This document shows positions 1-11,300 of a DNA stretch of 11,300 nucleotides, one piece after another. The notes under the pieces were generated by a model. It saw only the letters and a list, made by a program, of their open reading frames with translations. It did not search any database and was not told where the DNA came from. The position numbers were made by a program, and so were the translations under genes. This DNA comes from a virus (taxonomy: Duplodnaviria; Heunggongvirae; Uroviricota; Caudoviricetes): the IMG/VR virus record IMGVR_UViG_2778261544_000008; one strand, given 5' to 3'. Position 1 is the first letter of the stretch; every line of letters begins with the position of its first letter.

Positions 1-249
1 ATGCGCACACAGGTTGTATTGCAAAAATGGGGTAACAGCATTGCCCTTCGACTAACGGGAAACCTTAAAACCGTTCCGGGTTTTTCAGTGGGTGATATCG
101 TCAACGTTGAAATTAGTGAAAAAGGGCTTTTTGTAGAAAAGCCTGCACGCCGTCGCCTGAGTGAAGCCGAACTACTCGCCGGGATAACGCCAGTTACAGC
201 GCACGCTGACGAAATTGCCATCCCATTCAATGAGGAGGTTGATTACTGA
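1..249 (+). CDS. Type II antitoxin, MazE/PemI/ChpS-like (AbrB/SpoVT-type)
   Basis: 82-aa ORF starting MRTQVVLQKWGNSIALRL, which matches the MazE/ChpS N-terminal pattern (K-WGNS-A-R-P). Its stop (TGA 247-249) overlaps the ATG of the next ORF by 1 nt, the usual antitoxin-toxin arrangement. Promoter lies outside the window. Confidence 0.7.
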   Translation: MRTQVVLQKWGNSIALRLTGNLKTVPGFSVGDIVNVEISEKGLFVEKPARRRLSEAELLAGITPVTAHADEIAIPFNEEVDY

Positions 250-593
250 TGTTTGTACCTAAGCGTGGTGATATTTGCTGGCTGGATTTTGAGCCGCAGA
301 AAGGAAAAGAGATCGGAAAGTATCGCCCGGCACTCATACTATCCCATGAGCAATATAACCGACTCACCGGGCTTGTCATATGCTGCCCCATAAGTACGAG
401 CATACGAAATGCTCCCACAGAAGTTCCGGTAACAAATCTGGACGCCCCCAGCGTGGTAGCAACCACACTCATTCAAACCCTTGACTGGCGTCAGCGGAAA
501 GCGCGCTTAATCACAGAGGCAGAAGATGGGGTATTTAATGATGTGCTTGAAAGAGTCATAACCCTGATTGGTGGAGAGCATCTGCTTAAGTAA
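249..593 (+). CDS. Type II toxin, MazF/PemK/ChpB-family endoribonuclease
   Basis: 114-aa ORF with the RGDI-W-DF-P-KG-E----RPA-IL N-terminal signature of the MazF/PemK fold. Translationally coupled to the upstream antitoxin-like ORF. Confidence 0.8.
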   Translation: MFVPKRGDICWLDFEPQKGKEIGKYRPALILSHEQYNRLTGLVICCPISTSIRNAPTEVPVTNLDAPSVVATTLIQTLDWRQRKARLITEAEDGVFNDVLERVITLIGGEHLLK

Positions 594-636: not shown

Positions 637-1908
637 CTATTCTTTCCAGTCAATCCCATCCAGTAAGCACCCTGCCTCATATTGCCCCACCACCCAGTCA
701 AGGTTACAGGACTCATAGAACGCGAGGCGATTATACTGAGGCTCGTTTTTTACCAGGCCACGAACGGAACCACGCTGCCAGTACAGACACAGATTGGCAA
801 GAGGTGTGATCAATACAGCATTGTCCGGGAAAAATGGAACGGTCACAGCCGGGAGATTCCCCAGAACGGGATTTTTAATGATTTCCTCGTTAAGCAAAAT
901 TTCCTGATTCATCTGCGATGGATCAAGACGGTTTATCAAAGGCCATTGCTTACGGACCAGCGTATTGTGACTGCATACGGCCACAATGCCTTCCTGCCAC
1001 TGTTCATCAATCATGGATTGCCAGGCATCCAGAACGAGCGCATCTATCGTATGGTGTGTACCGCGTGTATTACTTTTCGGTGATGAAACAGAAAGGCCGC
1101 TGATAACCCTTCCCGCCGCTTCATTTCGAAACTTCTGCAACCAACCCACGCCGCAATCGTCACGCCCCGGATATGTTTCAGGGTCAGATTCGGCGGCATA
1201 ATGTGTGCCGTTAAAACCAATCTGAATTAAATCCAGCCATTTCCGGCGTTCAAAAGCGGCCCGCGCACTTCCTTCAAGGCCGTTTGCGGATGCGTGAGCA
1301 TCGGCATTGTCGTAGCTCAACGCAAAATCAAAATTAACCTGCTCGCAGCGGTAGCCCCTTGAAACCAGTGAATGCGCCTGTAGTGGCGAACGGCGCTCGT
1401 GAGGTGGCGATGTGCGTGCCAACGGCCCCGAAGCGTCTACCAGCACAACCCGACCTGATATATCCGTAACAGGCACGGGAGTTATTTCAGCAAGGAAATT
1501 TGCCTGCCATCCACTGGCAAGCGTTGCACTCTGGCGGGGAACGGGTTCAACTTCTGACGAATAGCGCGCAGTGTCACCGGAAAAGTGCAAATCCTTCGGA
1601 TGTTTTCCGGTTATCGACTCGATAGCGCAATTGAAAACCATCTGAGCCTGTTGATTTCGTTGTGATACAACAGAATCAGCAGTGCAATTATAACGCTCAA
1701 TGCCGTCGTTATTACCCCCACCGCTTGCAGTATGCAGGGTGTGAAGCTCAAGCTCACGCTCCAGTTTTTGATATTCATTGTCCAGCGCGCGACGCGTCTC
1801 ATCGCTTATGCTTGCTGTGTTTGCTTTCAGGCGATTCCGGGACATTAATCCCCTGAGTCGGCTCACTATATCAGCGCCGTGCAAATGTGGAGTATTCAGA
1901 CCGCCCAT
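637..1908 (-). CDS. Major capsid protein, P2 gpN-like; start codon uncertain
   Basis: Several blocks match my recollection of P2 gpN: CEQVNFDF, IGFNG, VGWLQKFRNEAAGRVIS, IDALVLDA, LGNLPAVTVPFFPDNAVLITPLANL, YESCNLDWVVGQYEAGCL. The homologous region begins near the ATG at 1641-1639. The frame is open up to 2085. An ATG at 1908-1906 overlaps the upstream ORF's stop as TAATG. Confidence 0.75.
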   Translation of the reverse strand: MGGLNTPHLHGADIVSRLRGLMSRNRLKANTASISDETRRALDNEYQKLERELELHTLHTASGGGNNDGIERYNCTADSVVSQRNQQAQMVFNCAIESITGKHPKDLHFSGDTARYSSEVEPVPRQSATLASGWQANFLAEITPVPVTDISGRVVLVDASGPLARTSPPHERRSPLQAHSLVSRGYRCEQVNFDFALSYDNADAHASANGLEGSARAAFERRKWLDLIQIGFNGTHYAAESDPETYPGRDDCGVGWLQKFRNEAAGRVISGLSVSSPKSNTRGTHHTIDALVLDAWQSMIDEQWQEGIVAVCSHNTLVRKQWPLINRLDPSQMNQEILLNEEIIKNPVLGNLPAVTVPFFPDNAVLITPLANLCLYWQRGSVRGLVKNEPQYNRLAFYESCNLDWVVGQYEAGCLLDGIDWKE

Positions 1909-2618
1909 TACTGCCACCCCCGGCAGAGTTCTCTGCCCTCCGCAAGGTCGCGCATTTTTTCTGGATTCTGTCGCGCCGCGCTCCATTGTACAGGTGAAGG
2001 GGCGTTCCTGATTGCGCGGCTTACCGAATCCGGGAGTTTCTCCGGGCAATAACGCAGCGGGCTGGAGGTGTCGCTTTCGGTATCGTTAATCCGGCCGCGA
2101 ATCATCCCGACACTTTCAGCAGTATCTGTCGCTTTCAGTGTTTCGCATATTTTCTTTTCTGCGTTATACAGCGGCTGGCCAAGCAGCTCACATAAACCAC
2201 GAATCAATAACAGAGCAGGGGTCAGCTCGTTAATCAGTTCGGGAAGTGCTTTTGCAAATATCTCTGCCCGCAACTTATTATCAATGCTTTCGTAAGCACA
2301 ACCAGCCTCTGCCGCGTTATAACGACACTCCAGTAGCCTGATGCGCGCCTCATCATGCAGCACCCGCAGACGCTCAAGATTTTCTCGCGCCACACCCGCC
2401 TGAATGGATAATTTCGCGGAGGCTTCCGTTTTTACGCCCAGCGCAGACAGGATTGAGTTCTGCCAGTCACGATCGAGAGATTCCAGCTCCCCTTTCGTCT
2501 GTTCGATAGTTGCTTCCAGATTGGTGATTAATGATTCCTGTTCACTGAGTTTTGCCATGGCTGCATCAAACTGTGCTTTACATACCTGATGTTCGGCGCT
2601 TGCCTGAGTTATATCCAT
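1908..2618 (-). CDS. Helical or coiled-coil protein, candidate capsid scaffold (Sid/gpO-like role)
   Basis: 236-aa ORF with a good SD (CAGGAGcaaatATG). The N-terminal two thirds are heptad-like and helical. It lies immediately upstream of, and overlaps, the capsid gene. Its last ~45 codons overlap the capsid-frame ORF and look low-complexity. Confidence 0.5.
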   Translation of the reverse strand: MDITQASAEHQVCKAQFDAAMAKLSEQESLITNLEATIEQTKGELESLDRDWQNSILSALGVKTEASAKLSIQAGVARENLERLRVLHDEARIRLLECRYNAAEAGCAYESIDNKLRAEIFAKALPELINELTPALLLIRGLCELLGQPLYNAEKKICETLKATDTAESVGMIRGRINDTESDTSSPLRYCPEKLPDSVSRAIRNAPSPVQWSAARQNPEKMRDLAEGRELCRGWQ

Positions 2619-3067: not shown

Positions 3068-3250
3068 CTATGAAGTTTTCGACTTCCTGCGCTTAGTAAT
3101 GCGTACAAACGACTCAAGCGTACAAAAACAAGCCCCACACTCAATATTATTGCACTGGTAATACGTTCTGTAGATGTTTTGTTCGTGTTCTTCCAACGAA
3201 CGACCACGGGTGCGGGCTGAAGCGCCACAGGCCGGGCAAGGGAAAGACAT
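3068..3250 (-). CDS. ogr: Ogr/Delta-family zinc-finger late-gene transcription activator
   Basis: 60-aa ORF MSFPCPACGASARTRGRS...YYQCNNIECGACFCTLESF. The C-x2-C-x22-C-x4-C spacing and flanking residues match P2 Ogr (MFHCPLC...HQCQNVNCSATFITYES). SD GAGGAG lies upstream. Confidence 0.85.
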   Translation of the reverse strand: MSFPCPACGASARTRGRSLEEHEQNIYRTYYQCNNIECGACFCTLESFVRITKRRKSKTS

Positions 3251-3613
3251 ATCACGCTCCTCTTACTGGTGTGAAATTTAACCTATTATATCTTCTGCCG
3301 CCCCCCTCTGGCTGTATCAAATAAACCCGCAGCAGTCGCCGCGTATTACGCACGGGCGCGCCGTTCCCATGCTCACTCGTCACATTCCCCGTATCAGTTC
3401 TCTCTTGCCGTAAGAACGGCTCTGGCTGGCGATAAAACTAACCCGGTCGGGGCATTCCCGCAGCCTTTAGCGAAAATGTAATTTACCCCCTGAAACGCGT
3501 GCTGTTCCCCCGTCACCTGCGCGCGAAAAACTCACCGTTTTTTGTGCACGCACGAAATCGCCCTCCGGGCGCGCCAGTACTTGGCCGGATGGGCAAAAAG
3601 TTACTCTAAAAAA

Positions 3614-3643
3614 TTGTGCAAATTTGTGCACTTTTGTGCAGAT
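3614..3643. repeat. Three direct TTGTGCA repeats at exact 10-bp phasing
   Basis: TTGTGCAAAT / TTGTGCACTT / TTGTGCAGAT starting at 3614, 3624 and 3634, in non-coding DNA upstream of the Ogr-like gene. Confidence 0.5.
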
Positions 3644-3862
3644 GAACAATAGCGTCAAAAAGAGTGCTTTTGAGAAATTTTTTATGGCAACTGCGCCGCG
3701 TGTATTACGTTTTTTACCATCCCCGCCGCGCATGTACATGCTTCATTTTTCTGCCAAACAACAGGGCAACTCCCCGTGACTGGCAGCCCCAAAAAATCAA
3801 TGATTGATATTGCATTTTTGTTAGAGGTTAGACCAGTTGTTTTGAGGCTCTGCCTCATAATC

Positions 3863-4185
3863 CGGTGGGGGGTGCGCAAAGCGGTTACAACGGTTACAAC
3901 AGTCAAAAACACCACTTAACAGCATGATTTTAATGGATATTGTTTGTAACCGCTTTGCGGTTACACTGCGGTTACAACGGTTACAGGTTTCAGAAAGTTA
4001 TTTATTATCAATCAGTTAAAAACTTAACTTGTAACCGCCTGTAACCTAACAAAACGGTTACATGTAACCGCGTTGTAACCGCTTTTGTAACTCATCGGAC
4101 CAGCTGCAATGTATTGATATATAATATAAAAATGAGTAATTTTAAATTTGTAACCGTTGTAACCGCTTTGCGCAACCCCCCCCGG
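3863..4185. repeat. Iteron array (TGTAACCG/CGGTTACA) with flanking inverted repeat; putative replication origin
   Basis: At least 13 full copies of the 8-mer in ~285 bp. The left half is mostly CGGTTACA, the right half mostly TGTAACCG, around an AT-rich centre. Outer arms 3874-3899 and 4148-4173 are exact reverse complements (26 bp). Embedded palindromes GTAACCGCtttGCGGTTAC and CGGTTACATGTAACCG. An AT-rich stretch lies at 4100-4150. Confidence 0.55.
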
Positions 4186-4380
4186 ACTTTAGCGCGACCC
4201 TTTAAAATGTTAATTAAACTAACTTATTCCGTCTCACTTTCATTAACTCTCTGTAATTGAAATGTGCCTCGCCACTGTTTGACCCTTTCTGATAATCAGG
4301 GGAGGGAGAGCAAAAAAAATTGATGGCGACACCGCTGCAATATGGCCACCATTGCATTGCTGTTACCGTTGGTTCTGGCC

Positions 4381-4408
4381 AACAAAAAAGGCCAGTGGAA
4401 AACTGACC
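4381..4408 (-). terminator. Probable rho-independent terminator downstream of the integrase gene
   Basis: On the minus strand: 7-bp stem GGUCAGU / ACUGGCC (one G-U pair), 5-nt loop, then UUUUUUGUU. About 30 nt after the int stop. Confidence 0.45.
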
Positions 4409-4438
4409 TCTTTTGCTGTGAATGTGGCGTTCTGCGGG

Positions 4439-5440
4439 TTACTCTGCTGGTTCTTTTTGTTCAGTGAATGCTATGTTAGCTATCGGGTTAAACCTCATGG
4501 CATCTGCCAGATAGTCGGGAGAAAAATGCGCATAAGTCATCGTTTGCTGAATAGTGGCATGGCCCAGAATCCGTTGCAGGGTAACGATGTTTCCCCCGTT
4601 CATCATGAAATGCGTGGCGAACGTATGACGCATCACATGAGTCGCCTGCCCTTTTGGCAAATCAGGCTTCACCTCCTGGAGGATCTCGCGAAACCGGAGA
4701 TAATCGACCTCGTACAGCGGCCCAGTTCGGCAGGTTTTAATCAGCGAGAGCACGGCATCAGACACCGGAACCGAACGGGACTTCCCGTTCTTGGTGTTGA
4801 AGAACGTCACGCGATTACCGACGATATGCTCCCCGCGTAATTCCGTCGCCTCACCCCACCGCGCCCCCGTGGAGAGACACAGAATGGCGACACGACGCGC
4901 ATCACCTTCGAGTCGCTCAAGAAGCCGCTCAATCTCATCATCAGAAAGAAAGGCCATCTCTGTATTCTGAATTTTTAGCTTACGTATACTGCGCACGGGG
5001 TTCGGGTTGTGAAAGACCCCTGCTTCAATCAACACCGTGAACATGGTAGACAGAACGCATAAGTCACGATTAATACTGGACGGCATTAATCCGGCCTGTA
5101 ATTTCTCTGACCGATACTCAAGCATAAATTTTCGCGTCATCTGGTTGGCGCGCGGATCTCCCATTTCACGAATCACTTTCTCCAGCCGGATCCTGTAGGT
5201 ATCGCCGTAAGCCTGATTACACCCGTCAAGCATCCACCATGTATCAAGCAACTCTGATAATCGCCGCCGATCAGCAGGTTTAGCTAGCCATGGGTTATTA
5301 TGGAAATTCTGCAAAACATATTGTTCGAACTTCTCTGCACTTCCTTTCCTGGTAAAAATTTTACGTATCCGTTTGCCGTATGTCCCTTGCGGCCTGATAT
5401 CTAGCAACCATCTTCCATCATCCATCTTTCTGATCGACAT
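4439..5440 (-). CDS. int: Tyrosine recombinase, P2-type integrase
   Basis: Strong similarity along the whole length to my recollection of P2 Int (MSIRKMDDGRWLLDIRPQG..., ILCLSTGARWGEA, ATHVMRHTFATHF, LQRILGHATIQQTMTYAHF, giving the catalytic R, H-x-x-R and Y). Start taken at ATG 5440 (SD AAGGAG upstream), not the upstream in-frame ATG at 5476. Confidence 0.9.
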   Translation of the reverse strand: MSIRKMDDGRWLLDIRPQGTYGKRIRKIFTRKGSAEKFEQYVLQNFHNNPWLAKPADRRRLSELLDTWWMLDGCNQAYGDTYRIRLEKVIREMGDPRANQMTRKFMLEYRSEKLQAGLMPSSINRDLCVLSTMFTVLIEAGVFHNPNPVRSIRKLKIQNTEMAFLSDDEIERLLERLEGDARRVAILCLSTGARWGEATELRGEHIVGNRVTFFNTKNGKSRSVPVSDAVLSLIKTCRTGPLYEVDYLRFREILQEVKPDLPKGQATHVMRHTFATHFMMNGGNIVTLQRILGHATIQQTMTYAHFSPDYLADAMRFNPIANIAFTEQKEPAE

Positions 5441-5442
5441 AC

Positions 5443-8112
5443 TTAAGATCTCTCCTTGTAACTGAATATCCGGCATTTCAGCACTTCCGGCTCTCTGGCC
5501 TCGGCTACTCCTTTTCCGGCGTTTGCCTGTCTGGACACCTCACTACGAATGGTTTTGCGGCCTGTCAAAGGTCGGGAACGCCCGGCTCCGAGCAGCTCAA
5601 TCATTTCGCGATCTGTTCTGATCTCCACGCGGTGAATGGCGGCAGCCTGTGCCAGTTGCGGAATGCTGATAGCAATCCCTTCGCGGCATCCCTTGCCGTA
5701 GTGGTTTACGCCGTATTTTGTTATGCCGTCCAGGAAGTCGAACGCCTCCCAGAACTCCGTCACTTCCGGCAAGTCAGCCGCCGCCGCTTTAACCTGCGCT
5801 GTTGCCATTTGTTCCAGTTCCAGACATGTGGCATCAAGCCATTCATCCGGGATATCAATAACGCATTTCAGCGCCCTGACCAGCGCGATAAGTTGTGCGT
5901 GATTTTTGGCGATGCGGGGATGGCGAATATTTTCGCATCCGCAAAGGCGTTCCGTTTCAGCTGGCGACACTTCCAGGAACGTTTGCATAATCGCCCGTTC
6001 CTGACTTACCGCCCGGTGAATAAAACCCGATACCTTCTCGACGGGGTAGAGTTCCAGCCGTCTCGCCGCCAGTCGGGTATCTGGTGAATGGCGTTTTTTA
6101 TCGGTGTATATGCGTATCAGGCGCTCAATAATTGCCGGTGAGGCGTTTACCCGCGCATTCTGTGCAATCACGATAGCGCCCTTAAAATCCGGATCATAGG
6201 TGTTGTTATTGTTGGCCTTAACACCACGAACACCGATACCGCCGCCGTTATAGAGGCTTTTCAGGTTATCGAAATCAAACGCACCTCTTTTTTGCGCATT
6301 GTCTCCCCGGTCTGCTTCAATCAGAACAACAGGCAATCCGGCGACCTGTCCAAAGGTGCGCTTCCAGCCCGCTTCTGATCCTTTGGTTGGATCAACGCCT
6401 TCGTAGTTGTCACGACCGCACAGCCGCCAGCAAAAATCAATCAATGTTGATTTACCCGTTCCGGGTTCCCCAGTGACTTCAAGGAAAGGGAAGGATTCTT
6501 CTTTATCCCGGATTTGTTCACTGAACAGCGACCCCAGCCAGAAAGCCAGGGTAATAATTCCCTTTTCGCCAAAAGCCAGCCAGAGATCTTCTACCCATGA
6601 CGTTGTAAATTCATCCGTTTTTTTGTAGTTAATCTGTAATGTGGGTTTTTCGCTTAATGGTTTTGCGTTTATGCCATCAATTTCAAAATAATCTTCGTCA
6701 TTGATTTCATAAGTTTTACCCTTGTAAACAGCAATATCATTAAACAGCCATGCCCCAATGGCCTTGTTGTATCCGATAAAATCCTGACCAATAACCTCTT
6801 TTATTGCAGGAAGGTCATTTTTTATTAATGCGTCAAGCTGCGTAGTCGTTCCGGTATAAATGCCGCCTTTTGCTACGTGCAACAGACGTTTTTTAAATTC
6901 AGATGCGGATGTTAATTGCCCTGATGTAAAGGTGTTTTTCACCGTAGCACCATCCGGGAATGTAATGCGGAAGTAATACCATGCTTCATCCGTATCATTG
7001 TTTCGAATGTAATAAAGCGGCACTGGGTTACAGTTTGCGATTTCTTTTACAGCGCCGGATTCCTTGAGTGCAATTTTGCGCGCTTCATCTTCGTCAACAT
7101 TTCGCTCATTAATGACACGCTCAACAGCCTTCATATGGCGCTCAATATCCAGCTTGAACCAGAAAACACGGTTATCAAAGGGAAAATGAAATTCCTTTCG
7201 CTCACGAAAGGAAAACATTATTAGTGCCTTATCTCGTGGAGATTTCGCCAGCAATAAATCACCGTAATAACGGTATCTTTTCACATCATGGCCACGCAGC
7301 TTTCCGGCGACGTGTAAATCATTCCAGTCGCGTTTATTGTTGTTTTTCCCTGGTAACGCCGCTGCCGTTCTCCAGCCGTCTTCGGCGCTGCGTTCTGCAT
7401 GTTTTTTCGCGTAACGCTCACCTGCACGCCCGTTATCCAGCGCCCACACGATAACCGGACGGGGATTATCCCCGCACAGCTTCGCCAGCTCTTCCAGCGC
7501 CTTATCAGGGTAGTTCACGGCAGACATGACAGAAACGGCCGCAATGCCATTCTGGTTAAGACTGATGGCATCAAAGATACCCTCACAAATCCAGATTTCT
7601 TTGGCCTTGCTTAAATCTGCTCCTGGATAAGCCCACCACAGCCCCTTGTAGCTGCCGGAAAAATTCGCCTTGCGTCCGAAGCGTTCCGGGCGATCTATGA
7701 TTCGCTCCCACCACACACCGTCAGCCAGCGTAAAACGCACAGTAGCGGCCTGTTCGCCGCTTTCCTTGTCCTGGTATCGCTCCTGGGTAAATGCTCCCCT
7801 CAGTGGCTCCACAGCAATATTGCGTGCTTCCTGAAGATAAGCTGCCGCCGCTGCGTATGGTTCATCTTTCGTACTGATATAGCGATCTGACCATGATGAA
7901 AACACATCCGGGTAAAGTTCTTTAGTCAGCAGGTCTACACCGCATTTATTTTCACGCCCGCAGTGTACGATGTACGGCCTTTCAAGGCTGGTAAACAACT
8001 CTTTCTTTCCACATTGCGGACAAACACCATACCGGAGGTAGTTATTTTCTTCTTTAAAGTTGTAATCACGAATAAGACGGTTAATAATCTCTTTTCTGGT
8101 GTTATGTTTCAT
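5443..8112 (-). CDS. Primase-helicase, P4 alpha-like (zinc ribbon + TOPRIM primase + P-loop helicase)
   Basis: N-terminal zinc-binding CPQCGKK...HCGRENKC, a TOPRIM-like segment EIWICEGIFDAISL...WALDNGRAG, and Walker A VTGEPGTGKST with a downstream VVLIEAD. ATG at 8112 is preferred; an in-frame GTG at 8130 is possible. The stop is 2 nt before the int start. Confidence 0.9.
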   Translation of the reverse strand: MKHNTRKEIINRLIRDYNFKEENNYLRYGVCPQCGKKELFTSLERPYIVHCGRENKCGVDLLTKELYPDVFSSWSDRYISTKDEPYAAAAAYLQEARNIAVEPLRGAFTQERYQDKESGEQAATVRFTLADGVWWERIIDRPERFGRKANFSGSYKGLWWAYPGADLSKAKEIWICEGIFDAISLNQNGIAAVSVMSAVNYPDKALEELAKLCGDNPRPVIVWALDNGRAGERYAKKHAERSAEDGWRTAAALPGKNNNKRDWNDLHVAGKLRGHDVKRYRYYGDLLLAKSPRDKALIMFSFRERKEFHFPFDNRVFWFKLDIERHMKAVERVINERNVDEDEARKIALKESGAVKEIANCNPVPLYYIRNNDTDEAWYYFRITFPDGATVKNTFTSGQLTSASEFKKRLLHVAKGGIYTGTTTQLDALIKNDLPAIKEVIGQDFIGYNKAIGAWLFNDIAVYKGKTYEINDEDYFEIDGINAKPLSEKPTLQINYKKTDEFTTSWVEDLWLAFGEKGIITLAFWLGSLFSEQIRDKEESFPFLEVTGEPGTGKSTLIDFCWRLCGRDNYEGVDPTKGSEAGWKRTFGQVAGLPVVLIEADRGDNAQKRGAFDFDNLKSLYNGGGIGVRGVKANNNNTYDPDFKGAIVIAQNARVNASPAIIERLIRIYTDKKRHSPDTRLAARRLELYPVEKVSGFIHRAVSQERAIMQTFLEVSPAETERLCGCENIRHPRIAKNHAQLIALVRALKCVIDIPDEWLDATCLELEQMATAQVKAAAADLPEVTEFWEAFDFLDGITKYGVNHYGKGCREGIAISIPQLAQAAAIHRVEIRTDREMIELLGAGRSRPLTGRKTIRSEVSRQANAGKGVAEAREPEVLKCRIFSYKERS

Positions 8113-8934: not shown

Positions 8935-9117
8935 TTACCCCTCCATGATTTTTACTGCGCATTTGTGGGTTAATCGCCCCTGTTTGTCATTGCGGGAATA
9001 TGCCATACGACAGGCATCACGCCATGCATCGTCATAAGTCGGATATTCCCAGGAATGAATCATCTGGCGAACGTCGCCGTTCTGGTAGTTAATCAGAGTG
9101 ATAAGGAGCTTAAACAT
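8935..9117 (-). CDS. Hypothetical small protein, 60 aa
   Basis: Start chosen at ATG 9117 with SD GGGAGG. It begins 5-8 nt inside the end of the Icd-like ORF. Confidence 0.45.
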   Translation of the reverse strand: MFKLLITLINYQNGDVRQMIHSWEYPTYDDAWRDACRMAYSRNDKQGRLTHKCAVKIMEG

Positions 9118-9283
9118 GGCACGCCTCCCGGACACGGATACGAGCAACAAAGACCAGACGGGATGCCGGAAGCATGGCGCGCGCTTCGCGCTCACTGGCA
9201 GCGGTAACGGTATGAAGGCGAATATTTTTACCGTGGCACTGCATAAAGCGCCAGATAAAATCAGGGCGTGTTGATATAGCCAT
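9110..9283 (-). CDS. Icd-like small protein (P4-type immunity-region ORF)
   Basis: 57-aa ORF starting at ATG 9283 with SD GAGGAG (MAISTRPDFIWRFMQCHGKNIRLHTVTAASEREARAMLP...). It resembles small proteins annotated as Icd-like in P4-type elements, by recollection only. The longer 175-aa frame upstream has no SD. Confidence 0.4.
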   Translation of the reverse strand: MAISTRPDFIWRFMQCHGKNIRLHTVTAASEREARAMLPASRLVFVARIRVREACHV

Positions 9284-9535
9284 TTTGGCGGCTCCTCTAA
9301 CTGATTTACGGAGTCTCGCCAGCACGCTGCTAAACATGGTGGCGGGACGTAACAGGGTTAGCAGACTGGCGTTAGAGAAACCAGCGAGCGCAAAGGCTCC
9401 CCCATTACGCCCCGCCATAATACGGGGTAGGGTGGAATTACGGGCACAAAAAAACCGCATTACGGAAATATAGCGGCTACCCGCTCTAACAATCAGGCTG
9501 CTAAACCCGGCACCTGTTTTATGAGGTGCGGGCAA

Positions 9536-9565
9536 ACGATACGCCATGACAAAAAAGCGAGTCAA
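9536..9565 (-). promoter_or_regulatory. Candidate sigma70 promoter for the minus-strand early operon
   Basis: On the minus strand: TTGACT (9565-9560), 18-nt spacer, TATCGT (9541-9536). It would start a long leader (~240 nt) before the first SD-equipped ORF at 9283. Confidence 0.3.
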
Positions 9566-9699
9566 GAAAAATTGCAAATTATTTTGGCGATATTGCGCTG
9601 ACTTATTGATTTTTAAGAGTAAAAAAGTCATTATCATTTCTGCCTATTGTTTCTTATTGTTGGTTTCAGGTGCATTAAATGCACATCCTTGACTGGTTG

Positions 9700-9831: not shown

Positions 9832-10152
9832 TTATTCAACTCTGGCGCTACCGGATTCCCTCTCCCTTTTCTTTTTGGCGTTTTCGTATGGGTTATTCAC
9901 TTTGGCAATAACTGGCGGATTACGCAGCCACCACAAAACATCACTTAACAGCCAGGTACATGAGCAACGCCCCAAAGAGTGACGGGGAGGAAAAGCACCG
10001 ATCTTCTCCAGTTCCCAGCGCCGGGAGCGTGAAAGCGTGGTCATCTTTTTACACTTCTCTTCCCTGATGCGTTCTTCGCAGTCAAAACCATACTCGGCGA
10101 GTATGGTGCGGCGCTGTTCTGGAGTTGGTGGAATGAATGCGGATTGAGTCAT
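9832..10152 (-). CDS. alpA: AlpA/Vis-family DNA-binding regulator (excisionase-like HTH)
   Basis: 106-aa ORF with SD GGGGGA. The central segment LSRSRRWELEKIGAFPPRHSLGRCSCTWLLSDVLWWL fits the AlpA/Vis pattern (LSRST-YR...G-FP-...LG-R-V-W...V--W). Confidence 0.6.
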   Translation of the reverse strand: MTQSAFIPPTPEQRRTILAEYGFDCEERIREEKCKKMTTLSRSRRWELEKIGAFPPRHSLGRCSCTWLLSDVLWWLRNPPVIAKVNNPYENAKKKRERESGSARVE

Positions 10153-10247
10153 ATTTCCCCCTATGTTTCTGAACTTTCGGGGGAGATTTTTGTTTTACGG
10201 AGTTTTGAAAGCAAGTATTAAAGGTCTTATTAAGATGCTTGCTGGTC

Positions 10248-11300
10248 TTACTGAGATGATGCCTTAATCCATCTTGATATAGTACTTTTATCAAAGCGCA
10301 TATTGAGTCCTGCCTCTCTTGCTTCCGCGGTCAATATATCAGCAAGTTTTACCGGATTGTTTTCGAGTTCTTTATAATGAATAACAAGCATCGCACGAAA
10401 AAAATCCTTCATTGTTTTAGATAATCGTTCTATATTGTTTTTATTGGTGCATATATCTTTCTCCCCATCCTCAGAACTTAATATATTGTTACCCGCACGC
10501 AAATATAAAGTATCTGCCAATGGACTAACATAATCTTTTCTTAACTCGCTATTGGAGTTTGTAGCATTTTGTATTTTTAAAAAATCATTCTTTAAGATAT
10601 ATAAATCACCAATATCAAAAGAAACATCCTCAGTAACAATTACTCCTATATGTATATCAACGTCAGAAGCAATTATAATATTGCTATTAATTATTCGGTT
10701 GGCTTTAAACTTCTTATTAAAATCATAGTTGGCAAAAAAACTTCCCCCCAAAGCGAAAATGCCGCCTATTTCAACAAAATACTTATGGTATTTTTCTTGA
10801 ATACCTTTAAATACTGGTGGTACAACTGCCACACCTCTTTCATCCGTTGCTATTCGATATACACTATATATGTGATAATTTTCCCCATAATATAACCCCC
10901 TGTTATAATAATTTAACAAAGCAAATGCAGTATCAATTGCTATGTCACCAAATTTGGGCGCTACATATGAATGGCTTAGAGATTCACACATTGAATCAAA
11001 TATAATTCTCGACTTGTTTTTTATATAATTAAAACCATGGTGTTCTGCCGCCCTTTCTGAAATGGCATCAAGGTCAGATAACCGTGATTTACATGGTTCT
11101 GAATCCATAAACTTACGCAGACAATCGAAATTAACCACATCTTTTTCATCTGGGATATTTAATACTCCATATGCAGATTCAATTTTTATACAAATACGAA
11201 TGCAGCCTGTCACAGCCCAATGAATAAGATCATCAATATCGCAGTCTAATAACTTTGCCGCGCGCTCAATAGGATAGTAATCTCTTAGTGGTAACGTCAT
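10248..11300 (-). CDS. Hypothetical protein, 350 aa, strongly AT-rich cargo gene with HTH-like termini
   Basis: Uninterrupted 1053-nt ORF whose ATG is the last three bases of the window. Composition is far more AT-rich than the neighbouring alpA and primase genes. The N-terminus (IERAAKLLDCDIDDLIHWAVTG) and C-terminus (LADILTAEAREAGLNMRFDKSTISRWIK) look HTH-like. The central domain is unrecognised. Confidence 0.65.
   Translation of the reverse strand: MTLPLRDYYPIERAAKLLDCDIDDLIHWAVTGCIRICIKIESAYGVLNIPDEKDVVNFDCLRKFMDSEPCKSRLSDLDAISERAAEHHGFNYIKNKSRIIFDSMCESLSHSYVAPKFGDIAIDTAFALLNYYNRGLYYGENYHIYSVYRIATDERGVAVVPPVFKGIQEKYHKYFVEIGGIFALGGSFFANYDFNKKFKANRIINSNIIIASDVDIHIGVIVTEDVSFDIGDLYILKNDFLKIQNATNSNSELRKDYVSPLADTLYLRAGNNILSSEDGEKDICTNKNNIERLSKTMKDFFRAMLVIHYKELENNPVKLADILTAEAREAGLNMRFDKSTISRWIKASSQ

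Follow-up and report, generated by a model that had tools for sequence, protein, structure and literature searches.

What is an AT-rich gene doing directly upstream of alpA in a P4-related satellite: is it acquired cargo, or part of the element's own machinery? The question is raised by the virus record IMGVR_UViG_2778261544_000008 (Caudoviricetes), whose 11,300 nt, together referred to here as the window, end in a 350-codon open reading frame (ORF). A preliminary description made from the sequence had proposed this gene, ORF350 (hereafter X), as horizontally acquired cargo, either a defence gene or a regulator. We found that X holds a fixed position next to alpA, is replaced only by other alleles of one new protein family, and is exchanged together with a pair of palindromic sites in front of alpA whose class matches that of the X C-terminal domain. 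Of the two options in the preliminary description, the sequence comparisons favour a regulator.

X is a complete gene, and its low GC content is a family trait

The gene and its proposed target lie at the following positions:

10248..11300, minus strand: X gene (ORF350), 350 aa; supported by the ORF and its translation, the same coding sequence in RefSeq, the family and an AlphaFold model
9832..10152, minus strand: alpA, encoding an AlpA/Vis-type regulator (PF05930, E=3e-7; phrog_2790, E=5e-30), the gene proposed as the target of X

The A of the X start codon is base 11300, the last base of the window. In locus L001 (E. coli chromosome NZ_CM143726, 99.5% identical to the window locus; L-numbers denote the compared loci), RefSeq annotates a coding sequence with the same start and stop as a "hypothetical protein" (WP_000174596.1). 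All X homologues open with the motif M-x-LPLR, which confirms the start codon and shows that no part of the ORF is missing from the window. At the base composition of X, a 350-codon open frame has a chance probability of ~1e-13. The gene called at the window edge is therefore real.

The preliminary description had also recommended inspecting the sequence beyond 11300 for partners. In L001, a co-oriented P4-type tyrosine integrase (Arm-DNA-bind_3 + Phage_integrase), facing gcd, ends 16 nt from the X ATG. The IMG/VR contig L014 (IMGVR_UViG_2645728091_000014; 11,289 nt), near the window in length, likewise stops at the X start codon, and the window edge is thus probably the product of a virus-prediction tool cutting the element just inside the integrase. 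On the other side, a gap of 95 nt separates X from alpA, in agreement with the described placement of X directly upstream of this gene.

X was also correctly described as sharply richer in AT than its neighbours (GC 0.336 and third-position GC 0.256, compared with a GC of 0.505 for alpA, 0.488 for the primase gene and 0.493 for int2, the second integrase gene of the element). The recent acquisition read from this composition did not hold. Every X allele checked had a GC of 0.28-0.36, whatever the host, integration site or allele ("allele" denotes a family member occupying the same slot); low GC is therefore a trait of the family and gives no date of acquisition.

One hypervariable family occupies the slot between int and alpA

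A query comprising alpA, X and int (2,685 nt) was compared with 5,426 complete E. coli genomes, which yielded 43 islands. All 43 are annotated as integrase, hypothetical protein and helix-turn-helix (HTH) regulator over a span of 2,680-2,719 nt, and in each the slot contains a single gene, of constant family and length; it was never empty and never held other cargo. The window's X allele is present in 30 of the 43 islands. In the remaining 13, the flanks are 81-97% identical and X is unalignable, the replacement genes encoding proteins of 346-356 aa from the same family with 25-45% amino acid identity between allele classes. For example, L001 and L029 are 96.5% identical across 10.4 kb until 39 nt before the alpA ATG, unalignable for the next ~1 kb, and again 89-95% identical from about codon 30 of X through int. 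Outside X, the satellites of different allele carriers are 93-97% identical, and X is the sole hypervariable segment of the 13 kb. Since all 43 slots hold the same family and the flanks stay near-identical, X varies by allelic replacement within one family and not by exchange of unrelated cargo. The slot does vary between otherwise identical elements, a point raised in the preliminary description, and it does so by alleles of a single family, which is not the variable cargo slot that had been envisaged.

The order int, X, alpA is kept in ~25 further loci from Salmonella and IMG/VR; a Klebsiella plasmid locus was seen only as X followed by alpA, its upstream integrase not being listed in PLSDB, the source of this context, which leaves out pseudogenes. 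In the contexts examined (Salmonella islands, IMG/VR contigs and distant relatives sharing only the N-terminus), a P4-type int is followed within 0-150 nt by X and then by an AlpA gene. The Salmonella islands with X are located at gcd, at ycaO and at another site, and the order is independent of the replication module, occurring with Toprim, D5_N/DUF5906 or DUF927 primases. X thus occupies a core position, and very probably it is a core gene of these elements rather than cargo. The preliminary description had named a conserved core component with a housekeeping role as the alternative to cargo; X is such a component in position and family membership, but its hypervariable sequence is not that of a housekeeping gene.

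Two other genes were noted in this connection. An orphan X-like gene in Klebsiella pneumoniae NZ_CP129740 (L037, 3962-4783; 273 aa), whose similarity to X is confined to the N-terminus, is flanked by wbuC and cynR; neither an integrase gene nor alpA is close by, and the gene may be a remnant or a domesticated copy. YfjH of the K-12 element CP4-57, also encoded between intA and alpA, is unrelated to X and lies on the opposite strand.

X represents a new protein family with variable and conserved domains

A phmmer search of 1.84 billion representatives gave 111 matches to X, ~30 of them full length at 300-378 aa. In a profile search the family formed 54 clusters at 90% identity; those with a named source were all from Salmonella enterica or E. 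coli, all "hypothetical" and none with a Pfam domain. More distant relatives occur in Klebsiella. No match was found by tblastn in 50,697 phage records, and P4 itself therefore has no X homologue. Back-translated patterns detected no X relatives in GTDB species representatives or JGI metagenomes, a homology search with the N-terminal profile recovered fragments only, and a literature search found no paper describing the family or naming WP_000174596.

The absence of a recognisable family, already noted in the preliminary description, was confirmed for X in scans of Pfam, PADLOC, PHROGs and NCBIfam; in PADLOC-DB 2.0, which includes P4 gop-beta-cII, 0 families matched at E<=1. No recurrent Pfam match emerged from 51 family members or from the C-terminal domains scanned in isolation, and ten distant homologues likewise had no Pfam domain. 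X represents a protein family that is new and unannotated; its probable niche, the satellite/phage regulatory specificity cassette, is a known one.

An AlphaFold2 model built from the 51-sequence alignment (mean predicted local distance difference test score, pLDDT, 81.9; predicted template modelling score 0.70), together with the alignments, divides X into four parts:

11151..11300, minus strand: N-terminal unit, codons 1-50 (M.LPLR.YYP..RAA.LL.C..DDL.HWA..G.I); conserved, with invariant residues, and modelled
10536..11150, minus strand: middle, codons 51-255, globular, helical and beta, hypervariable, ending in G.F.L and DLFI.K.DF motifs; from alignments and model
10428..10535, minus strand: predicted disordered linker, codons 256-291; pLDDT <50 at 260-291, length varying between homologues
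10251..10427, minus strand: C-terminal three-helix domain, codons 292-350, candidate DNA-binding domain of class A1 (..FDKSTISRWIK); from its helices, isoelectric point (pI) and match to dyad class

Conservation peaks in residues 1-50, around the G.F.L and DLFI.K.DF motifs (residues 180-245) and in the C-terminal bundle, and the centre is variable; identity over the N-terminal unit and middle is mostly 21-40% between compared loci. The compact region to about residue 250 is mostly modelled at pLDDT >90. Residues 8-48 are modelled in a beta-alpha-alpha-beta-beta order resembling winged-helix topology, and residues 1-50 have an acidic pI of 4.9. The C-terminal bundle (295-348; helices 295-308, 316-329 and 338-348) belongs to a domain with a pI of 9.9. 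Type-B alleles (L009, L030-L032 and L085, from Salmonella and IMG/VR) have an unrelated C-terminal domain with a C...W...H.H...CPL pattern, which is possibly metal-binding.

The HTH-like ends and unrecognised centre given in the preliminary description are therefore only partly borne out: the model has an N-terminal beta-alpha-alpha-beta-beta unit and a C-terminal three-helix bundle, but no profile or fold search linked either end to a known HTH family. Foldseek comparison of the X model with PDB and BFVD gave nothing at E<0.7. The N-terminal unit had weak local fold matches to MerR-like and excisionase HTH proteins (E>1), and the middle region had no fold match. Profile searches against PDB sequences with the whole protein, the N-terminus and the C-terminus returned spurious matches only (the sole whole-protein hit, at E=0.31, was an unrelated protein). 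AlpA, excisionase and MerR HTH families (PF05930, PF12728, PF13411) were absent among the 51 members at E<=10, and hhalign of the X N-terminal profile against the AlpA alignment of the element gave a probability of 0.3%, indicating no relation.

The exchanged cassette includes paired dyads upstream of alpA

Between the X stop codon and the alpA ATG, nearly every allele has two self-palindromic 11-13-mers spaced 21 nt centre to centre. They are followed after 9-10 nt by a conserved TTG, after 17-18 nt more by AAAAAT or CAAAAT, and then by a conserved leader. In the window these elements are:

10246..10256, minus strand: dyad O1, TCTCAGTAAGA, 4/5 palindromic pairs, overlapping the X stop codon; from cross-allele alignment
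10225..10235, minus strand: dyad O2, TCTTAATAAGA, fully palindromic, spaced 21 nt from O1; from cross-allele alignment
10186..10214, minus strand: weak sigma-70-like alpA promoter candidate, TTGCTT (10209-10214), 17 nt, AAAAAT (10186-10191); TTG and AAAAAT conserved across alleles
10156..10184, minus strand: alpA 5' leader hairpin, UCCCCC...GGGGGA, with the Shine-Dalgarno sequence inside it; -12.1 kcal/mol, compared with -3.9 +/- 2.1 for shuffles

Of 16 close loci put through a scoring scan, 13 have the dyad pair with a spacing of exactly 21 nt, and 0/300 shuffles attained the observed score. From the centre of site 2 to the alpA ATG the distance is 71-80 nt, and the allele-specific dyad of each element was found at the X-alpA junction only. 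A near-copy of O2 with one mismatch (TTTTAATAAGA) lies inside X at 10712-10722; it is the sole other copy in the 33-kb locus and may be due to chance in AT-rich DNA. A dyad of the Ogr/Delta type (TGT-N12-ACA) was not enriched (1 match compared with 2.5 expected).

Homology with other alleles breaks at ~11211-11239 on the int side, and on the alpA side conserved DNA restarts at 10191, at the -10-like element. The exchanged cassette therefore consists of X (from about codon 21-31), both dyads and the -35-like box. Equivalent leader hairpins are formed from differing sequences in L010 and L017 (AGCCUCAU/AUGAGGCU and UUCUCUGU/ACAGAGAG), and the leader hairpin suggests translational or attenuation control of alpA.

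Dyad class matches the class of the X C-terminal domain

The dyad pairs fall into three classes, each found with its own type of C-terminal domain:

Class A1: GCTTA-W-TAAGC or TCTTAATAAGA; helix ..T[IV][SGK][RN]W..; window, L003, L007, L010, L017, L033-L035, with L005 degenerate
Class A2: GCTAA-W-TTAGC; ..KDTITNWLKR; L002, L004, L029
Class B: GTTAG-N-CTAAC; type-B domain (..W..H.H....CPL..); L030-L032, L085, with L009 degenerate

L032 (class B) and L035 (class A1), Salmonella islands at gcd with little difference between them outside X, have Int proteins 99% identical and AlpA proteins 98% identical, and L001 and L002 have different dyads with AlpA proteins 99% identical. Neither Int nor AlpA can therefore specify the class of site; only X differs. 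In L005 (A1), identity over the N-terminal unit and middle is somewhat higher with type-B alleles (35-39%) than with the other A1 alleles (25-31%), which suggests shuffling of the C-terminal domain, with the dyads moving alongside. This match of dyad class to C-terminal class is the basis of the hypothesis that X binds O1 and O2 through its C-terminal domain and controls alpA.

An A1 dyad pair is also present in a P2-like prophage

An exact class-A1 pair (GGCTTAATAAGCC-N8-GGCTTATTAAGCC, with a CCTCTTATTCTTGAC tail) was found at 21185-21216 of L067, a P2-like prophage of E. coli STEC711, and in L045-L066. Its place is in the late operon, where the M15 endolysin and tail-chaperone genes flank it; the phasing is again 21 nt, and the 3' tail (CCTCT..TTCTTG) resembles the pyrimidine-rich tail of the satellite. 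In public contigs, the A1 pair in this prophage context was found in 21 IMG/VR contigs and in E. albertii, and 41-42 of the 5,426 E. coli genomes have the prophage segment that flanks it. The L067 prophage encodes nothing X-like. The A2 and B pairs were found in satellites only, not in the P2-like phage contigs of IMG/VR.

The prophage family and the island occur together in four of the 43 island genomes, compared with 0.33 expected, two of the four being near-clonal. The co-resident islands carry A2-type or window-type alleles, and none is of the GCTTA-W-TAAGC class. The L067-type prophage could plausibly serve the satellite as helper. Possible explanations for the site that the two have in common are a hairpin module present in both, a factor of the helper that acts on satellite and prophage alike, and an action of X on helper DNA or its titration by that DNA.

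Proposed role of X and alternative explanations

We propose the following mechanism. int and X would form one operon, so that a quiescent satellite would produce X. Dimers of X would bind O1 and O2, two helical turns apart, through the basic C-terminal domain; the centres of the two sites lie ~50 and ~70 nt upstream of where transcription would start from the weak alpA promoter-like site. Occupancy of O1 and O2 would set transcription of alpA, the activator/excisionase that would start the satellite cycle. As to the sign of this regulation, we lean to repression, or to a roadblock to read-through from int-X; activation from upstream positions would be equally compatible. Taking SaPI (Staphylococcus aureus pathogenicity island) Stl as a guide, we suggest that the hypervariable centre would be the input domain, on which a protein of the helper phage or some other signal would act. 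Swapping X and its putative operators as one cassette would create hetero-specific variants of an otherwise identical satellite, and the leader hairpin over the Shine-Dalgarno sequence may gate AlpA further. The predicted core of this proposal, regulation of alpA by X through the dyads, we consider evenly balanced between right and wrong. The full version, in which X is the helper-sensing master switch of many enterobacterial P4/phage-inducible chromosomal island (PICI)-like satellites, its C-terminal domain acting on allele-specific putative operators and its centre reading a helper protein in a hetero-immunity cassette, is more tentative, and we think it rather unlikely to be right in all its parts.

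Several observations weigh against regulation of alpA by X. Neither end of the protein was tied to a known DNA-binding family by profile or fold search. The promoter candidate is weak, matching the consensus at 7/12 positions in the window allele, and was not called by a consensus scan. Three close loci (L005, L009 and L017) have degenerate or differently spaced sites, and three distant homologues (L019, L025 and L026) have no dyad pair. The match of dyad to domain extends over three classes only, with the two physically linked in one cassette. That a P2-like prophage devoid of X-like proteins contains the A1 pair is in keeping with a hairpin or with a module common to prophage and satellite. 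Finally, a protein repressor is not obviously needed on an element that already has P4-type RNA immunity, as shown by two elements within the Icd-like ORF 9110-9637, which therefore constitute an immunity carried besides X:

9335-9422, minus strand: C4 (P4 CI immunity RNA); Rfam, 72.9 bits
9448-9529, minus strand: isrK-like element; Rfam, 52.2 bits

A possible, if doubtful, alternative is that X is a core protein with another role, either as an accessory or directionality factor of the integrase, acting via its excisionase-like N-terminus, or in helper interference, and that the palindromes form an RNA hairpin (a terminator, insulator or transcript stabiliser) that ends the int-X transcript and bars read-through into alpA. 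Consistent with a link to the integrase, int and X are tightly coupled (from a 4-nt overlap to a 16-nt gap), and the beta-alpha-alpha-beta-beta unit with its weak MerR-like/excisionase fold matches is the most conserved part of X. However, this unit is acidic, and Int is 93-99% identical across alleles whose X proteins share only 25-35%, which speaks against co-evolution of the two. As for a hairpin, the two dyads are mutually reverse-complementary; of 11 loci that were folded, eight would end the int-X transcript in a structure with an energy between -17 and -27 kcal/mol, and the same hairpin with a pyrimidine/U-rich tail is present in the P2-like prophage operon. On the other hand, the dyads give no strong hairpin in the window allele (-5.8 kcal/mol), L005 or L010, although the window sites are still palindromic; there is no T-run after the dyads, and no terminator was called by the scan. 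Moreover, in three unrelated classes each arm is a palindrome of its own (chance probability ~1e-3 per arm); this property, unnecessary for a hairpin, favours dimer-binding sites.

Acquired anti-phage defence cargo, with X as a single-gene sensor-effector in a variable slot, is improbable. Canonical P4-like satellites have a variable defence hot spot between int and psu (PMC9122126, PMC8628076, PMC13586616), and the position of X beside a P4-type integrase is that of the hot spot (PMC9122126, PMC13586616). The AT-richness of X, the extreme divergence of its alleles, which would fit an arms race, and the finding that many unannotated P4 hot-spot genes were protective when tested (PMC13586616) also speak for this explanation. 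Against it, the slot was never empty and never held anything other than the X family, AT-richness is common to all alleles checked, both ends of the protein are conserved, and the linked cis-sites lie beside the alpA promoter candidate. The family has no match in PADLOC, Pfam, NCBIfam or PHROG, the confident model contains no nuclease, NTPase/ATPase, TIR, kinase, pore or membrane effector domain, and none of the newly named P4 hot-spot systems is like X (PMC13586616). The defence role put forward in the preliminary description thus found no support, X being unlike gop-beta-cII or other P4 hot-spot systems.

Least probable is recognition of the dyads by a helper-phage or host factor instead of X, the satellite copying a helper site so that alpA fires in the helper late phase and X acting elsewhere or as a modulator: the exact A1 pair with its phasing and similar 3' flank in the L067 late operon, the co-occurrence of prophage and island, and the 54% identity of the satellite int2 product to the L067 integrase speak for it, but the A2 and B pairs were found in satellites only, the co-resident islands are not of the GCTTA-W-TAAGC class, dyad class tracks the X C-terminal class, the prophage has no X-like product, and no candidate binder was identified.

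The carrier is a P4-related satellite with a non-canonical gene order

X is carried by an element ~13 kb long that occupies the hpt-gcd intergenic region. In the direction of transcription, int, X and alpA are followed by the Icd-like gene, small ORFs, the gene for an 895-aa Toprim primase (phrog_1139) and int2, and then by genes for an Ogr/Delta zinc finger, a 236-aa coiled-coil protein and a P2-family capsid homologue, mazEF and hpt. By its gene content and arrangement in this region, we classify the element as a P4-related satellite with a non-canonical order. The marks of P4-like satellites are present (P4-type integrase, AlpA/Vis, alpha-type primase and Ogr/Delta activator). No Sid was found among the element proteins, and the likeness of the 236-aa protein to Psu is weak (PHROG E=0.013). 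The canonical order is int-hotspot-psu-delta-sid-alpA-...-alpha, whereas here it is int-X-alpA-...-alpha-int2-delta-236aa-capsid homologue. Further features of the window are:

4439-5476, minus strand: second tyrosine integrase gene, int2 (Int_N + Phage_integrase), 345 aa, the protein compared above with the integrase of P2-like prophage L067
637-2049, minus strand: capsid homologue, a satellite-encoded late-type gene
1908-2618, minus strand: 236-aa coiled-coil protein, a satellite-encoded late-type gene
3068-3250, minus strand: Ogr/Delta zinc finger, a satellite-encoded late-type gene
1-593, plus strand: MazE/MazF-type toxin-antitoxin pair (PemK_toxin E=4e-25), at the hpt-proximal end, on the strand opposite to the rest of the element

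The int2 gene begins 2 nt past the primase stop codon, and two integrases are also found in related Salmonella satellites. The P2-family major capsid homologue, upstream of which the coiled-coil gene sits, has an N-terminal extension of ~165 aa and 27% identity to prophage gpN over 164 aa; in L004 and the Salmonella loci, the capsid gene lies between alpA and icd. Two tandem elements in the island were considered and are unlikely, given the 2-nt distance between primase and int2 and the position of the capsid gene in L004. The ~1.2 kb between the Ogr/Delta gene and int2 (3251-4438) has no RefSeq gene and a GC swinging between 0.40 and 0.57, and could contain an origin of replication, cos or RNA features.

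Relation to known systems

The X slot resembles the P4 defence hot spot (gop-beta-cII, PARIS, retrons and others) in adjoining a P4-type integrase and in differing between similar elements. The hot spot, however, lies between int and psu and holds many unrelated systems, whereas the X slot lies between int and alpA and holds one family of constant length with no match to a defence model. An AT-rich, unannotated gene beside a satellite integrase is not necessarily defence cargo.

AlpA/Vis/excisionase proteins (HTH_17, MerR-like) share with residues 8-48 of X, as modelled, the beta-alpha-alpha-beta-beta order and have a similar residue pattern (Y-x-I-x-x-A-A-x-L-L ... W), and are likewise encoded in the integration module. 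The X N-terminal unit differs in having no profile match to them, in being acidic and in its fusion to ~300 further residues.

The A1 target-like pair in the P2-like prophage late operon allows a possible comparison with CapR of the PICI-like elements (PLE), a satellite DNA-binding protein that represses a helper gene. This likeness is one of role only and not of homology; the phage counterpart exists for one dyad class only, and binding by X is predicted. If X were a master switch, then, with one putative operator class mirrored in the late operon of a P2-like helper, the helper could be a further target of X, or its replicating DNA could titrate X.

Compared with lambdoid immunity regions, X is one gene with two sites upstream of a single putative promoter; there is no divergent promoter pair, no cro-like partner and no CI/Cro-type HTH signature. 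As in those regions, a regulator gene, here a putative one, and its linked palindromes are replaced together between flanks that are 90-97% identical, giving several specificity classes.

The repressors Stl of SaPIs and Rpr of Gram-positive PICIs have no sequence or fold similarity to X in PDB profile and fold searches, and are divergent from the operon they control, whereas X is co-directional with its proposed target operon. In X the candidate DNA-binding domain is C-terminal, and its element also has P4-type RNA immunity. Like X, Stl and Rpr are encoded next to the integrase and are extremely divergent between similar islands; they are modular, with a DNA-binding part and a variable part (that of Stl binds a helper-phage protein), and they control the promoter of the excision/replication operon, a role to which we liken the one proposed for X. 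As a hypervariable family in a conserved position, with linked allele-specific palindromes at a putative alpA promoter, X is a concrete candidate for the control point at which Gram-negative satellites would sense the helper and switch on alpA.

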